From the IMG/VR virus record IMGVR_UViG_3300035492_000044, positions 1-46,178 of that record: 46,178 bases of DNA. One strand, given 5' to 3'. The DNA is from a virus. Taxonomy: Duplodnaviria > Heunggongvirae > Uroviricota > Caudoviricetes. Position numbers and translations under genes: made by a program. Shown here in pieces: positions 724 to 40,765 of the stretch. The stretch's first letter is position 1, and every line of letters starts with the position of its first letter. The notes beneath the pieces are model-generated. The model saw only the letters and a list, made by a program, of their open reading frames with translations, made no database searches and was not told the DNA's origin.

Positions 724-748
724 AACAGAACAGCGCTCAGATGCCTCG

Positions 749-779
749 AAACCCTGTTGGGGTGGAGGGCGGGCGTAGT
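749..779 (+). repeat. 31-bp direct repeat, copy 1 (AAACCCTGTTGGGGTGGAGGGCGGGCGTAGT)
   Basis: Identical to 40626-40656; intergenic, upstream of the ligase. Confidence 0.95.
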
Positions 780-872
780 ACTCCCGCTTACTGTACTGTC
801 TGCTACGCAGACCACTACTAGGAGAGGAAAGTAGGAGGATAGACAGTACAGTGAGAGGTAGTACAGACGTTT

Positions 873-901
873 AGATACCTCGAAAGCCTGTTAGTTCGAG
901 G
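873..901 (+). promoter_or_regulatory. Second copy of a 22-bp motif (AGATRCCTCGAAASCCTGTTRG, with 739-760), overlapping a 7-bp hairpin
   Basis: 873-894 vs 739-760 match at 19/22; stem CCTCGAA 878-884 pairs with TTCGAGG 895-901; regulatory role inferred. Confidence 0.55.
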
Positions 902-925: not shown

Positions 926-2737
926 ATGGAAGACCTGATCAAGCGTATTACCGAGGCAGCTACCGCCTACTATGAAGGCGATCCCATTATGTCGGACGAT
1001 CAGTTCGATCTTCTGGTAGAAGAGCTTCGTAGCGTAGACCCGAGTAATAAGCTCTTGTCTACTCCAGGATGGGGATATACTCCTAAGTCTGAACATCTTC
1101 AGAAGTTCAAGCATACTTTCGAAGTAGGTGGTCTGGATAAGGCTATTTACTCGGAAGATAAGGCAGTATCCCTCTACCCTCAATCCATTGCATCGTTCAA
1201 GCTGGATGGAGGATCGGCGGTAGCTTATTACGCCGATGGTAAGCTAGTTAGAGTTCTCTCTCGTGGAGATGGATTCGAGGGTCTTGACATCACCAGCAAC
1301 ATCAACCCCATGTATCTTCCGAAGGAAGTAGACCCAAGTATTCTTGAGGTCCGTGGTGAAGTGGTTATGTCCAAGAAGGACTTCAGTAAGTTCGAGGGAT
1401 ACTCGCATCCTCGTAATGCTGCCATAGGTATTTCCCAGTCTAAGTATTCCACACCTGAGCAGAAGGAAGCAGTTCACTTCGTAGCGTACGAGCTACGACG
1501 CTACCTAACTTCCAATACGCCAATGTCATTCCAGAATGGCCTTGAATTCCTACGAGACCAAGGATTTAAGGTAGTTGAGTACTGGACTGTTTGGAATGGG
1601 CATCCGATGGAGTTCGAGCCGGTATTTACTCCTTCTCTTAGCTCTTACGAATACCCGATTGATGGAGCAGTTATCCAGAATAACTCCGGACCTGAAGCTT
1701 ATGCTCTCAAGTTCGCAGCAGAGTCTACGGATACCGAGGTAGTTGACGTAGTCTGGCAGAAGTCTGGGTTCGGACGACTGATTCCGGTTATCCAGATTAA
1801 GGGAGTTACTCTATCAGGTGCCTTCATTGAGTTCGTATCGGGGCATAATGCTGACACCATCGAGTCCTCTGGAATAGGACCAGGTGCTGTGATTAAGGTA
1901 ACTCGAAGCAATGAAGTAATCCCATACTGCTTAGGTGTAGTCAAGAGAGTTGATCCTGTAATTCCCACGGAATACGAGGGAATGCCTACTGAGAGAGTAG
2001 GTGTCCACCTTCAGATTAAGAACTTCAATGTCGAGCCAGAGGTAGTTAAGACAGTCCTTGGTAAGTTCTGTCCTCACGGTATGGGTGGAGCTACGATTAA
2101 CGCTATCGTGGATACCTATAAAGTGGACTCCCTCGAAAGACTGGCTTGGTTAGTAGTTAATGCCGAAGTAGACCCACACGAGACTAAGCGGGATCTTCAG
2201 AAGATAGCTAAGACAGCTATTCTGGCAGATAAGGCGTTTGAGATGCTCCGTGCGGTACTAACTACCCCGGTAACTCTAGTTGATGTCCTCTGCATGAGCT
2301 GGTCGAGAAATGTGGGCGATGTAGCAGCTTCAGTAGTAGCTGAGTACTATGAAGACTGGAAGGATCTGATGGAAGACCTGAGAAAAGGTTCTCTGCCTGA
2401 AGATCTTCAGATGCCAACGTACTTAGCACGACAGGGTCTCCTAGACAACTGGGAGGTAGTCTGTAAGCTGATTAACTTCGGATTCACTAAGCAGGAATAT
2501 AAGAAGCCTGTGAAGGTAGAGTCAACGTACAAGGTGGCAGTTACCGGTAAGCTGAGTATGCCAAGAGGTAAACTTCTGGATAGCTGGAAGCAGTTCGGAG
2601 TAGTTGAAGCTAACGTAGGTAGCGCGGACTACCTTATTGCTGACGGTCCTTCGAGTAGCTCCAAGTATACCGAAGCTGTATCTCGTGGAATTACCATCTT
2701 AACTGAACAAGAGTTTGATGCACTAGTGAGGAAATAA
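926..2737 (+). CDS. ligA: NAD+-dependent DNA ligase with C-terminal BRCT domain
   Basis: Domain Ia YYEGDPIMSDDQFD, adenylation motif KLDG, SRGDG..G.DIT, EVRGEV, HPRNAAIG, OB-fold, BRCT-like VAVTGKLSMPR; GGAG RBS. Confidence 0.95.
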   Translation: MEDLIKRITEAATAYYEGDPIMSDDQFDLLVEELRSVDPSNKLLSTPGWGYTPKSEHLQKFKHTFEVGGLDKAIYSEDKAVSLYPQSIASFKLDGGSAVAYYADGKLVRVLSRGDGFEGLDITSNINPMYLPKEVDPSILEVRGEVVMSKKDFSKFEGYSHPRNAAIGISQSKYSTPEQKEAVHFVAYELRRYLTSNTPMSFQNGLEFLRDQGFKVVEYWTVWNGHPMEFEPVFTPSLSSYEYPIDGAVIQNNSGPEAYALKFAAESTDTEVVDVVWQKSGFGRLIPVIQIKGVTLSGAFIEFVSGHNADTIESSGIGPGAVIKVTRSNEVIPYCLGVVKRVDPVIPTEYEGMPTERVGVHLQIKNFNVEPEVVKTVLGKFCPHGMGGATINAIVDTYKVDSLERLAWLVVNAEVDPHETKRDLQKIAKTAILADKAFEMLRAVLTTPVTLVDVLCMSWSRNVGDVAASVVAEYYEDWKDLMEDLRKGSLPEDLQMPTYLARQGLLDNWEVVCKLINFGFTKQEYKKPVKVESTYKVAVTGKLSMPRGKLLDSWKQFGVVEANVGSADYLIADGPSSSSKYTEAVSRGITILTEQEFDALVRK

Positions 2738-3012
2738 TGAGGCTTTTAATTGAATCGGACAGGGAGATTGCAGAGCTGCACATTGTATTCTCCGGGCCGG
2801 ATTCAGCTAAGAAGACTATTGTGACTGGAGGCTCTAAGGAGCCTCTCTCCATTCATAGTCCGCAAGCTGACTCTAGTCGAGAAGAACCTATCCCAGAATT
2901 CGGTAAGGTGGAGAGATCACTCACTTCTACTGAGTCTGGTGAGCCTATCACATACGATATTTCGGGACGTGACCAGAAGGTTGATTCCGAATTTGCTGAA
3001 TTCAAGGTATAA
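2737..3012 (+). CDS. Hypothetical acidic protein, 91 aa
   Basis: TAATG overlap with the ligase stop; ends 2 nt before the actin-like gene. Confidence 0.7.
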   Translation: MRLLIESDREIAELHIVFSGPDSAKKTIVTGGSKEPLSIHSPQADSSREEPIPEFGKVERSLTSTESGEPITYDISGRDQKVDSEFAEFKV

Positions 3013-3014
3013 TT

Positions 3015-3962
3015 ATGAAAATTCTCTGCGTTGATCTGGGGTTTGGTCACAATAAGATCGTCTTCGGCGATGAAACTGGGATTAAGAAGCTGTATAAATT
3101 CCCATCTGTAATTGCCAGTGTCGATGTTAATGACCTGGTTCGTGACGATCGTGTCATCTCTATGGAAGGTAAGTCCTTCTATGTTGGTGATGATGCTCTG
3201 GCAGTACAGAGCCGTTCGATCATCGATGTGAAGAACTACCCTCTTCTGGAATACTCTGCTCCGCTGTTCATCTCAAAGGTGATGAACGACATCAATGACG
3301 TTCCAGATGTCATTGTTCTAGGCCTATCTATCGCCCAGATTTCTAACTCAGCTCACTTCAAAGAACGTGTCGGTAAATTCCTGAAGGATGCTGGTCTTAA
3401 TATCAGAATCGTCCTACTACCTCAGGGTATGGTGGCTAAGCTGGCCATCGATAAATATGCCGACAACTTCCCTGAGGTATCTACGGAATTCGGTCTTCAT
3501 AAGAATTACATCGGTATTGATATCGGGTTCAATACCCTGGATATCTTCCAGGTAATCAATGGCCAAACCTCCAGTAACCTGGTTCGTGGTATTCCCGAGC
3601 GAGGAATTCAGGTTATCGTAGCCAACCTTATCAAGGACATCGAAGAAAATGATGGTGTCAAGCGGACTATGTCCGAAGGTAAGGCTATCCTTGATACCGG
3701 AGTTTACCGGATTCGAGGTAAAGATATAGATTGTTCGGATCGTATTGCCAAGTACACCGAAGAATACATCAAAGAACTGATGGTCATCGTAGAGAACGAG
3801 TTCGGAGAAGTCCTGGATAAGTCCGATGCTATGTTCATCTTCGGTGGTGGTAGTTATGCTCTTAAGAAACTGGTAGATGATTTCATCAAGATTCCTAAGG
3901 CATCAGCAGAGTACTACAACGCAATCGCATACTTCTTGTATGTAATTCAGAACAAAGGTTAA
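3015..3962 (+). CDS. parM: ParM/StbA-family actin-like ATPase
   Basis: Phosphate-1 DLGFGHNK, connect PQG, phosphate-2 DIGFNTLD, adenosine GGGSY; 315 aa, typical size. Confidence 0.9.
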   Translation: MKILCVDLGFGHNKIVFGDETGIKKLYKFPSVIASVDVNDLVRDDRVISMEGKSFYVGDDALAVQSRSIIDVKNYPLLEYSAPLFISKVMNDINDVPDVIVLGLSIAQISNSAHFKERVGKFLKDAGLNIRIVLLPQGMVAKLAIDKYADNFPEVSTEFGLHKNYIGIDIGFNTLDIFQVINGQTSSNLVRGIPERGIQVIVANLIKDIEENDGVKRTMSEGKAILDTGVYRIRGKDIDCSDRIAKYTEEYIKELMVIVENEFGEVLDKSDAMFIFGGGSYALKKLVDDFIKIPKASAEYYNAIAYFLYVIQNKG

Positions 3963-3964
3963 TT

Positions 3965-4561
3965 ATGACTAAGCGTCGATTTACACCATACAATGAGGCC
4001 GGTCACCTGGTTGTAGATATCGAGACTCTCGGTAAAGTCAAGGGAGCACTGGTTCTGTCTATCGGAGCAGTCTTCATGAAAGAAGACGCCGATATCAAGA
4101 CCTTCTACCGGAACATCTCGCTACAAGACAGTATACTGGCTGGGTTCAATGTGGACCCAGAGACGCAACAGTGGTGGAGTGAACAGAATCCGGAGATCTT
4201 CAAGGACACTATCAAAGATGGTGCTCCTCTGGTAGATGTTATCAAAGAATTCGCTGAGTTTATCAAGGAGTGTGATCCTCACTACTTCTGGGGTAACTCA
4301 TTCGACTTTGACTTCGGTATTCTGGAGCCCTACTTCAATAAAGCTGGGGTTGATATTCCATGGAACTACGGTCTTATGAAGTGTGTGCGCACTTATCTGG
4401 ACCCAGGTGTGGTTACTGAGAGTATTCGTGATGAGTACAAACAGAAACTTGGTAATCGTGCACATCATGCTATGTTTGACGCTCTCTACGAGGCCTCTCT
4501 TCTGGCATATGGTATCAATCAAGCCTACGACTACGATGTAGACTACAAGTTCGGGGAATAA
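3965..4561 (+). CDS. DEDDh 3'-5' exonuclease (Rv2179c/ExoVIII-N-like phage family)
   Basis: ExoI VDIETLG, ExoII WGNSFDFDFGIL, ExoIII HHAMFDALYE. Confidence 0.88.
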   Translation: MTKRRFTPYNEAGHLVVDIETLGKVKGALVLSIGAVFMKEDADIKTFYRNISLQDSILAGFNVDPETQQWWSEQNPEIFKDTIKDGAPLVDVIKEFAEFIKECDPHYFWGNSFDFDFGILEPYFNKAGVDIPWNYGLMKCVRTYLDPGVVTESIRDEYKQKLGNRAHHAMFDALYEASLLAYGINQAYDYDVDYKFGE

Positions 4562-4564
4562 TAA

Positions 4565-4798
4565 ATGCTGAAGGTGAAAGCTGATCCTACTCTCTTCGAT
4601 AAAATGAAGAAGATAGGAGATAACTATAAGTCTCTGTTCGATAATGCAGCTGCTATCGTACAGAACGATATGGAAGTATCTCCAGAAGACTGCGCCAGCT
4701 GGTATGACGAGATGATTAAGGCTCTAAATACTCAGCATCAAGAAGCCATTGCTGCTATCAATGAGATCAGCCAGAAGATCATCAAAGATAATCAGTAA
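4565..4798 (+). CDS. Hypothetical helical protein, 77 aa
   Basis: Tightly packed ORF with phage-like codon usage; last gene before the convergent hairpin. Confidence 0.7.
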   Translation: MLKVKADPTLFDKMKKIGDNYKSLFDNAAAIVQNDMEVSPEDCASWYDEMIKALNTQHQEAIAAINEISQKIIKDNQ

Positions 4799-40370: not shown

Positions 40371-40765
40371 CAATATGTCCTCCTTGGGGAACGTGCGCAC
40401 CGCTTTGCACCTGCGCCTTACAAGGTAATAAAAACCACATCTAAAACACCCCTGCAAGCTTCTGCAAGGCGTCTGGAGACGCTCTGGAGTTATTTTCAAA
40501 GTAACTACCCCAATTTCTAATTTACAGAGGTGCCACAAGGCTCGCAGGACCTCTAACACGCCCGTTTTTGAAAATGCAAACTATTTTTCTGTTTCTGAGT
40601 GGAATCCCGACGTTTTCATGTCTCCAAACCCTGTTGGGGTGGAGGGCGGGCGTAGTGCTCCAAGTTACTTAATACTACTACTAACACTACTAGGAAGAGA
40701 GGAAAGAAGAGGATAGAAGAGTAGGTGAAGAGTAGATACAGTACACTAATCAATGAGGAATAGAT
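40371..40765. promoter_or_regulatory. Divergent control region between the late and replication operons
   Basis: Largest non-coding gap; A/T tracts, phased repeats, a near-palindrome and the 31-bp repeat. Confidence 0.7.
40626..40656 (+). repeat. 31-bp direct repeat, copy 2
   Basis: Identical to 749-779. Confidence 0.95.

Follow-up and report, generated by a model that had tools for sequence, protein, structure and literature searches.

The window, by which we mean the whole stretch of 46,178 nt that was analysed, belongs to a viral record (IMG/VR IMGVR_UViG_3300035492_000044) from a tar-pit metagenome, and its genes for a tail sheath, a tape measure/lysin, and a head protease identify it as part of a myovirus. 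The whole record spans 110 kb and is 68% complete. The operon under study lies on the + strand and opens with an NAD-dependent DNA ligase gene (926..2737; PF01653 and PF03120, and phrog_3869 at 2e-86). It is followed on the same strand by an ORF encoding an acidic protein of 91 aa (2737..3012), a gene encoding a 315-aa actin-like ATPase of the ParM/Alp fold (3015..3962), a gene encoding a 198-aa Rv2179c-like 3'-5' exonuclease of the DEDD type (3965..4561; Rv2179c-like domain at 8e-37), and, as the last member of the tight cluster, a 77-aa ORF (4565..4798) that has no significant family and whose linkage to the actin gene was not found elsewhere. In Acinetobacter phage Ab1-TPeters, too, the actin gene is followed by the exonuclease gene.

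As read from the sequence, the ligase gene and the 91-aa ORF meet at TAATG with a 1-nt overlap, and the junctions between the 91-aa ORF and the actin gene (AAGGTATAATTATGA) and between the actin and exonuclease genes (AAGGTTAATTATGA) each consist of a 2-nt gap accompanied by a Shine-Dalgarno-like AAGG. The overlap, the short gaps, and the AAGG elements make translational coupling plausible, and the tight packing of the actin gene between the ligase, the 91-aa ORF, and the exonuclease, as described in the original prediction, agrees with the ORFs and their junctions. Parts of the operon, among them the 91-aa ORF, are covered by contigs of 95-99% identity from a soil RNA library; since DNA carry-over is possible, these contigs are no proof of transcription.

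Leader repeats upstream of the ligase gene

Upstream of the operon (739..892, + strand), two copies of a motif at 739-758 and 873-892 flank an inverted repeat (778-801/841-864). The ligase ATG follows 45 nt after the second copy. Genome-wide, the motif CGAAASCCTGT was present in 13 copies on the + strand and in none on the - strand, against 0.03 expected by shuffling. All 13 copies were outside long + strand ORFs, and 11 of them were situated 28-64 nt before a gene start. As the motif is intergenic, restricted to the + strand, and usually found at this distance from a gene start, it is more likely a promoter element; the segment 739..892 is probably the promoter or leader of the operon and not a centromere, and the presence of the motif before other + strand genes suggests co-regulation. 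The repeats at 739-901 had been put forward as possible binding targets of the 91-aa or 77-aa proteins; a centromere role does not fit two copies of a 13-copy promoter-like motif. The RNA fold of the leader (724-925) gave a z of -2.7, suggestive of structure. No iteron array was found in the window, and none was conserved in 42 upstream and 58 downstream distinct loci of relatives, where the median intergenic gaps were 36.5 and 49 nt, respectively. Further repeats were read at 40451-40506.

The actin-like ATPase and its distribution

The 315-aa protein passed the Pfam cut-offs for ALP_N (38.8 bits vs. 26.3) and MreB-like_C (43.5 vs. 27.8) and matched phrog_691, labelled 'partition protein', at 9.5e-28. 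Among 29 homologues, the phosphate 1 residues (D7, G9, K14), Q137, the phosphate 2 residues (D169, G171, T174, D176), and the adenosine motif G277-G279 were invariant. The AF2 model displayed a two-domain actin fold (pLDDT 91.5); in Foldseek it matched best with ParM, Ta0583, MreB, and other actin-like structures, headed by pCBH ParM, Bacillus thuringiensis ParM, Alp12, and Ta0583 (TM 0.70-0.75, E ~1e-16). Alp12 was the sole sequence-level PDB match (E 3e-4), and 4a62, the solved complex of ParM with a ParR peptide, was at rank 17 in the Foldseek list. Its fold and motifs mark the protein as an ATP-binding homologue of actin that would be expected to polymerise. The agreement of Pfam, invariant motifs, AF2, and Foldseek confirms that a complete ParM/Alp-type actin ATPase, a member of the ALP/ParM branch of the ASKHA superfamily, is encoded in a DNA-metabolism operon of a myovirus.

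The gene had been described as an orphan, but it belongs to a widespread phage family corresponding to PHROG 691, with 36 phage records and 68 IMG/VR loci, whose GenBank annotations read partition protein, ParM/StbA, or MreB-like ATPase. The GenBank carriers are large myoviruses; the hosts of the carrier phages include Vibrio, Rhizobium, Ralstonia, and Acinetobacter, and many relatives are uncultured marine phages. Among 72,556 plasmid records there were six weak matches with identities of at most 28%, and a profile from a closer alignment recovered the family on two MAG contigs among 185,579 species genomes. The actin family is phage-specific, with plasmids and bacterial genomes virtually free of it. 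Literature searches gave nothing specific on this phage actin clade.

In relatives, the actin gene is found in replication gene clusters, with neighbours encoding ligase, exonuclease, sliding clamp, gp32, RNase H-like, and PhoH proteins. In 56 of 76 loci, the sliding clamp gene came after the actin gene, at a median of ~0.25 kb past the actin end. A DUF2786/DUF7168 protein was considered as a third conserved component and rejected, as it was found near the RP13 actin (39% identity) and was absent beside the small gene of Ab1. No lysogeny genes were detected in the ~8-11 kb surrounding the actin gene in seven GenBank records. In our myovirus, the reported absence of an integrase from the window was reproduced and extends to the whole 110-kb record, in which no integrase or resolvase family was matched; as this record is only 68% complete, a lysogeny module could lie beyond its present extent.

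A small-protein family linked to the actin gene

The 91-aa ORF had no match in Pfam, PHROG, or NCBIfam, and a word-based homologue search returned the ORF itself as its sole match; profile and synteny methods were needed to find its relatives. The profile search recovered 260 representatives of 77-151 aa, 178 of them at E <=1e-10, and the ORF founds a family without prior annotation, which is a new result. Of 59 loci, 49 had a family member on the strand of the actin gene (48 by the full HMM, plus locus L006 by the N-motif HMM), and none was detected in the other 10, including all Campylobacter phages. Among the 48 HMM-positive loci, 46 had the small gene upstream of the actin gene on the same strand, in most cases directly upstream; 34 loci, many from marine phages, carried two tandem paralogues. 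In the reverse direction, three small-protein profile matches with sufficient flanking sequence were each followed by an ALP_N gene no more than 0.6 kb downstream. Neither the small gene nor the actin gene is present in two E. coli phages with a 66% identical terminase, IME392 and EP_H11, while Ab1 and RP13 carry both. The two genes are linked and are lost together in two related phages, in line with the co-occurrence across relatives that the original prediction had named as a check.

Regarding protein architecture, the 91-aa product has a pI of 4.74 (family medians 4.9 and 4.5), and the AF2 model showed an N-terminal part without helices and a disordered middle. The conserved N-terminal beta motif, 'M+LxIESDxxIxxLxIxF' (aa 1-28; 2737..2820, + strand), which is matched by the N-motif HMM, was modelled at pLDDT 82-87 without an intramolecular partner and is presumed to be the end for self-association or cargo binding. 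A disordered linker joins it to the C-terminal peptide 'R..KVD.EF..F.V' (aa 71-91; 2947..3009, + strand), which stands out by its conservation and by its predicted docking on actin. The family also has an acidic mid motif, 'LDxDxxFG'; its likeness to the C-terminal tail of the Va1 DNA polymerase ('...ETESLDDW', possibly a clamp-binding motif) was too weak to be retained. Neither family searches nor AF2 revealed a DNA-binding fold, ribbon-helix-helix (RHH) or other, and the absence of family matches, the pI, and the lack of N-terminal helices uphold the earlier view that the ORF does not resemble an RHH protein. The ESM Atlas model of the ORF had a pLDDT of 0.40, and its structural neighbours were meaningless.

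The structure of the pair, proposed earlier as a check on the adaptor candidate, was also predicted. The complex of the 91-aa protein with the actin reached an ipSAE of 0.69 in three runs, the best of three controls reaching 0.00; among solved complexes, 58 of 80 reached this mark, and among mismatched pairs, 2 of 110, a scale that is rough here because our own alignments were used, and the value may partly reflect likeness to 4a62. The runs shared at least 57% of their contacts with a partner pLDDT of at least 48, the partner's own fold being uncertain in the complex model (pLDDT <50). On the partner side, the interface comprised residues 71-91, with the lowest-error pairs at K81-D83, F86, and A87. 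On the actin side, it comprised residues 104, 109-117, 133-136, 139-143, 184-187, and 309, which correspond by model topology to the helix of IA, the hinge and C-terminal helices, and the IIA hairpin, and the predicted interface residues were only slightly above average in conservation (0.63 vs. 0.56, p ~0.07). The cleft between subdomains IA and IIA is where eukaryotic barbed-end binders act, and actin-like proteins use it for longitudinal contacts too. The C-terminal peptide is predicted to dock in this cleft in the manner of ParR on ParM, whose equivalent hydrophobic pocket is occupied by the ParR tail (PMC5016525). Linkage, co-loss, and the predicted binding of the C-terminal tail support the 91-aa protein, which had been singled out as the adaptor, as a partner candidate.

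Possible function and comparison with known systems

We consider it fairly probable that the 91-aa gene and the actin gene constitute a phage-specific cytoskeletal module, in which a lytic-cycle filament is combined with an adaptor or regulator. The two genes are presumably co-transcribed, and the module would be expressed together with the genes for DNA replication and repair in a virulent-type myovirus. The conserved C-terminal ~20 residues of the mostly disordered small protein would enter the IA/IIA cleft of the actin, and the N-terminal beta motif of this protein would probably serve self-association or the attachment of a protein cargo. Such a module would work at the filament end as ParM and ParR do, by nucleating, capping, or tethering, and would be active during lytic infection without a sequence-specific centromere. 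Its most likely role would be organising replicating phage DNA or the replication machinery; timing and cargo of the filament are what we infer. A bolder version, to which we give little credence, is a centromere-free actin cytoskeleton in virulent T4-like and related myoviruses, many of them marine, in which the C-terminal tails of small disordered adaptors, either a single one or two tandem paralogues, clamp the filament ends and the N-terminal beta motif or the acidic mid motif holds a component of the replisome, for instance the sliding clamp. If true, this hold would tether replicating phage DNA to actin filaments irrespective of sequence.

Other explanations were weighed against the same data. 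The small protein might act purely on the filament and carry no cargo, through monomer sequestration, capping, or nucleation by a two-tailed dimer, like thymosin, WH2 proteins, or formins. We regard this as rather unlikely, although an acidic, disordered protein without a recognisable binding domain would suit it, its peptide is predicted to lie in the cleft used for longitudinal contacts, and the tandem paralogues of the 34 loci could form a bivalent heterodimer; the N-terminal motif, however, is conserved as well as the C-terminal one, which argues for a second interaction. That the 91-aa ORF arose by chance or merely adjoins the actin gene without a relation to it is extremely improbable. 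The lack of any database family and a word-based search that finds only the query would be expected of such an ORF, but the 260 profile representatives, the conservation of both end motifs, the consistent linkage and co-loss, and the metatranscriptome contigs that cover the ORF speak against it.

The original prediction had also considered partition of the phage genome in a plasmid-like state, which would be a type II ParMRC-like system serving a pseudolysogenic or carrier phage. A ParM-like fold next to a partner with a ParR-like tail, the GenBank label 'partition protein', and the incomplete record are in keeping with this, but we judge it very unlikely in view of a partner with a pI of 4.74 and without RHH or other DNA-binding fold, the absence of iteron arrays upstream and downstream in relatives, candidate repeats that belong to a genome-wide promoter-like motif, the near absence of the family from plasmids and species genomes, the lack of an integrase or resolvase in the 68% complete record, and GenBank carriers that are large myoviruses, with no lysogeny gene near the actin gene in the seven records covered. 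About as doubtful is an actin directed at the host, replacing or perturbing MreB or FtsA (cell shape, division block, or nucleoid displacement) under modulation by the small protein. The fold resembles MreB too, the gene is located among early/middle-type genes, and no cargo link was found; nevertheless, the best structural matches are of ParM type and not MreB, and no membrane-targeting element is evident. Overall, the sequence observation of the original prediction and its choice of partner candidate have held, whereas the orphan status, a centromere role of the repeats at 739-901, and the plasmid-like partition are not supported. The spindle for genomes or capsids that the original prediction had envisaged stays conjectural.

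The cytoskeletal module favoured here would join a small set of viral polymers. The phage tubulins PhuZ and TubZ are well studied; these phage-encoded polymers are responsible during infection for the position of phage DNA or of the phage nucleus, PhuZ being found in nucleus-forming jumbo phages. They resemble our system as phage-encoded cytoskeletal polymers but have a tubulin fold and not an actin fold. To our knowledge, one prophage (AlpC) and plasmid-like elements are the only sources of phage actins described so far, whereas the actin described here, with a partner family of its own, is common in large myoviruses without detected lysogeny genes and is placed inside replication gene clusters. 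This raises the questions of what the load of the filament is and how such an actin works without a centromere. Several carriers are cultured, among them Acinetobacter phage Ab1-TPeters, Ralstonia phage RP13, Vibrio phage Va1, and the Rhizobium RHph phages, which makes direct testing feasible.

The closest structural matches of the phage actin, pCBH ParM, Bacillus thuringiensis ParM, Alp12, and Ta0583, are of plasmid or archaeal origin and only 16-20% identical, and their known partners bind DNA. By gene arrangement, the locus resembles AlpA-AlpC of the Corynebacterium prophage CGP3, in which a virus-encoded actin is co-transcribed with a small adaptor encoded upstream, is produced early, and is linked to viral DNA replication (PMC4446434). 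AlpA's own promoter region contains 24 repeats (alpS) to which the protein binds (PMC4446434); in contrast, neither an alpS-like repeat array nor a DNA-binding character was seen at the phage locus, and CGP3 is a temperate prophage. When compared to ParMRC of plasmids R1 and pSK41, the phage system shares a ParM-type actin ATPase and a partner tail predicted at the IA/IIA pocket, as in ParR. It differs in its carrier, a virulent-type myovirus and not a plasmid, in an actin 14-20% identical to solved ParMs, in the absence of parC iterons, and in a partner that is encoded upstream (ParR being encoded downstream) and is acidic and disordered, without a ribbon-helix-helix DNA-binding dimer. Judging from the modelled complex, the phage partner seems to keep a ParR-like grip on the filament but to have lost, or never had, the DNA-binding half.

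Gene organization and distribution of the actin-like protein

The IMG/VR record, obtained from a tar-pit metagenome, comprises 110,178 bp and is rated 68% complete, with the window representing its first 46 kb. The window opens with a close-packed row of plus-strand genes, which by ORF calling and family assignment encode a DUF2786/DUF7168 protein (1-723), an NAD-dependent DNA ligase (926-2737), a 91-aa protein (2737-3012), a 315-aa actin-like protein (3015-3962), an Rv2179c-like exonuclease of 198 aa (3965-4561), and a 77-aa protein (4565-4798). Junctions in this row include one 1-nt overlap (TAATG) and two near-identical 2-nt gaps ('AAGGTnTAATTATGA'). A myovirus virion module (sheath, tape measure/lysin, head protease) is situated on the minus strand over the remaining window. 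Contigs from a soil metatranscriptome library of 2024, at 95-99% identity, covered positions 2608-3040 (the ligase end, the entire 91-aa ORF and the actin start); therefore, a close relative lives in soil, and, possible DNA carry-over being compatible with these contigs, they are no proof of transcription.

ALP_N and MreB-like_C both matched the 315-aa protein above their Pfam cut-offs, and its PHROG was phrog_691. The nucleotide-binding residues D7, G9, K14, Q137, D169, G171, T174, D176, and G277-279 were invariant in 29 homologues. Its AF2 model was confident (pLDDT 91.5) and lay closest to pCBH ParM, Ta0583, B. thuringiensis ParM, and BeeR, followed by R1 ParM and MreB, with TM-scores of 0.6-0.75 at 14-20% identity; a sequence search of the PDB detected Alp12 alone (E 3e-4). 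The protein is therefore a true actin-like protein in a family of its own, as expected from the ParM/StbA-type ATPase with actin-fold motifs of the original prediction, and we infer that it polymerises.

According to tblastn, homologues occur in 36 phage records, every one a large myovirus, including Acinetobacter phage Ab1-TPeters (57.6% identity), Ralstonia phage RP13 (50.8%), Vibrio phages Va1, Va2, phiKT1024, and 150E35-1, Rhizobium Cuauhnahuacvirus, and Campylobacter Firehammervirus-type phages; the gene was also found in 68 IMG/VR loci. Since the phage copies are already annotated as a partition protein or a ParM/StbA or MreB-like ATPase, the term "orphan" no longer applies. In the loci read, DNA-metabolism genes always surrounded the actin gene. 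They are ligase and exonuclease in the window's lineage; the marine and Vibrio clade has PhoH, sliding clamp, gp32, and an RNase H-like exonuclease in this place. In Vibrio phage Va1 (L087:328-1056, 1462-2478), a family-B DNA polymerase was seemingly split into two frames, 543 and 338 aa long, with a 242-aa ORF ahead of the second piece that may be a homing-endonuclease-type insertion. By large terminase, the nearest cultured relatives were Escherichia phages vB_EcoM_IME392 (MH719082.1) and EP_H11 (OP688485.1), with 66% identity. Among four complete terminase relatives (57-66% identity), Ab1 and RP13 carried both the actin and the small gene, and both genes were absent from the complete genomes of IME392 and EP_H11; in this lineage, therefore, the module is an accessory one.

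The small partner family and its predicted contact with actin

Genes upstream of actin in the relatives shared one recurring architecture with the 91-aa ORF, composed of the N-terminal motif 'M-F/K-x-L-x-I-E-C/S-x-x-x-I-x-x-L-x-I-x-F', a variable low-complexity linker, the mid motif 'LDxDxxFG', and the C-terminal motif 'R-x-x-K-V-A/D-x-E-L/F-x-N-L/F-x-F'. HMMs of the motif regions detected a member in 48 of the 59 loci that extend 1 kb or more upstream, and the N-motif model added L006 beyond these. The small and actin genes lay on the same strand in all positive loci and were direct neighbours in most, with one or two genes inserted between them in several; the linkage survives rearrangement. 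This co-occurrence, together with the co-absence from the two E. coli phages, strengthens the earlier proposal of the 91-aa ORF as adaptor candidate, and it is a putative conserved partner of phage actin.

A second, paralogous small gene was situated directly upstream of the first in 34 loci, starting with 'MIIEIKDLP...' and ending with '...KPIPxEMTDLEF'; the N-terminal motifs of the tandem copies differ while their C-terminal motifs are related, and a heteromeric adaptor is possible. Such tandems were observed in many marine and Vibrio-type relatives (L012:1738-2082 and L012:2084-2404, likewise L005, L010, L016, L021-L027, L030-L038, and others). Insertions of 1.1-1.5 kb lie between actin and its partner gene(s) in L010, L019, L052, and L071, small genes were located ~4.5 kb downstream of actin in L054 and L072, and the small gene of Ab1-TPeters (L001 2294-2563) was 2.4 kb upstream.

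When 1.84 billion representatives were searched with a profile, 260 small-protein matches emerged, all of 77-151 aa and none with a domain fusion, and no Pfam, PHROG, or NCBIfam model matched the family. Conversely, each of the three matches with enough flanking DNA was followed by an ALP_N gene at no more than 0.6 kb, two further contigs too short to judge being left out. No family member was detected in Campylobacter phages and a few metagenomic loci. In Campylobacter phage CP220, the upstream neighbour of actin is gp065 (L007:2927-3427), a 166-aa phrog_19505 protein with a lysine-rich tail, and phrog_19505-type neighbours were also present in L064, L065, and L067; this protein may be an alternative actin partner in Campylobacter phages.

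Structure prediction of the pair, using alignments of both proteins as input, gave a score of 0.69 (three runs: 0.71, 0.69, 0.69) against 0.00 for the best control, a pass that may partly reflect likeness to the solved ParM-ParR-peptide complex 4a62. Of 80 solved complexes, 58 attain this mark, as do 2 of 110 mismatched pairs, a rough calibration here given the custom alignments. At least 57% of contacts agreed between runs, with a partner pLDDT of at least 48. The confident interface involved only partner residues 71-91, with a core of K81-V82-D83 and F86-A87, and actin residues 104, 109-117, 133-136, 139-143, 184-187, and 309; interface residues were only marginally more conserved than average. 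AF2 placed the actin side on the IA helix 106-125, strand 131-137, hinge helix 141-148, the IIA hairpin, and the C-terminal helix, which in the model jointly make up the cleft that separates subdomains IA and IIA. This cleft is the ParR tail site on ParM and the barbed-end binder site on actin (PMC5016525), and the pair probably fits through the partner's C-terminal tail. Modelled on its own, the small protein shows predicted order solely at its two ends (pLDDT 82-87 for residues 1-20, ~75 for 71-90, and below 50 for 31-62); the confident yet unpaired N-terminal stretch suggests folding on a partner or on itself.

Promoter-like repeats and partition-system features

The original prediction named the repeats at 739-901 as possible binding sites of the 91-aa or 77-aa proteins; their record-wide distribution speaks against a centromere. 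Of the 13 CGAAASCCTGT copies in the record (0.03 in shuffles), two form the direct repeats at 739-758 and 873-892; every copy is on the plus strand, none on the minus strand, and all lie outside long plus-strand ORFs. The next plus-strand ORF starts 28-64 nt downstream in 11 of the 13, and for one copy the ligase ATG follows after 45 nt. Motif regions are located at 739-892 and 40616-40760 of the window, with further plus-strand copies at record positions 51393, 55148, 55306, 58357, 72411, 80672, 82349, 82513, 87697, 89832, and 98660. The motif is often extended to tCGAAACCCTGTTAGGGTGGA, and a ~120-bp element with a G-rich core is duplicated ahead of two plus-strand operons, its second copy at 40.6 kb. 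This placement and duplication resemble a promoter/leader rather than a centromere; CGAAASCCTGT is a probable phage-specific promoter.

The small protein is acidic (pI 4.74; family medians 4.9 and 4.5) and contains no RHH fold, as had been anticipated, nor any other DNA-binding fold. No iteron array was found near the module within the window; in the relatives, the median gaps were 36.5 nt before the first small gene and 49 nt after the actin gene, and iterated 8-mers were rare. Neither an integrase, already reported missing from the window, nor a resolvase was found in the record. Therefore, apart from the NTPase and the predicted tail contact, the defining features of ParMRC are lacking. The marine locus L012, alone among 58 loci, carried the 11-mer AATCTTAACGA five times in the 300 nt that follow the actin gene, which may be a coding tandem repeat. 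Far from the module, outside the window (L079, record 72112-72333), a 129-aa open frame was ParB_N-like below threshold (E 4e-4, 17.3 bits vs. a cut-off of 26.3).

Proposed role and comparison with known systems

We lean towards a lytic-cycle actin filament with an end-binding partner. The filament would polymerise with ATP, the partner tail would fill the barbed-end-type cleft, and the N-terminal motif would dimerise or bind a protein cargo, the cargo most likely belonging to the replication apparatus; this cargo is favoured because of the gene context and by analogy to AlpAC of prophage CGP3. That the partner instead acts as a regulator or nucleator carrying no cargo is a less probable but serious alternative. 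Partition of a plasmid-like carrier state, as earlier envisaged, would be in keeping with the actin-type NTPase and the predicted tail contact, but it is improbable given the acidic partner and the missing DNA-binding fold, iterons, and integrase or resolvase; moreover, 72,556 plasmids gave just six weak actin matches (at most 28% identity), and 185,579 species, one genome each, gave two loci, both on MAG contigs. An action of the phage actin on the host cytoskeleton appears similarly improbable, and a spurious 91-aa ORF would be very surprising.

The actin gene, already annotated and in a PHROG, is a known part. Judged by the literature and family libraries searched, the partner family with its tandem paralogues, the ParR-like grip predicted for it, and the lack of the DNA-binding and centromere half are new. 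In CGP3, AlpA and AlpC are both needed for efficient viral DNA replication (PMC4446434), the analogy drawn on for the proposed cargo. With ParMRC, the phage module shares the actin-type NTPase and, by prediction, may share the tail contact, whereas it differs in comprising neither the DNA-binding nor the centromere half.
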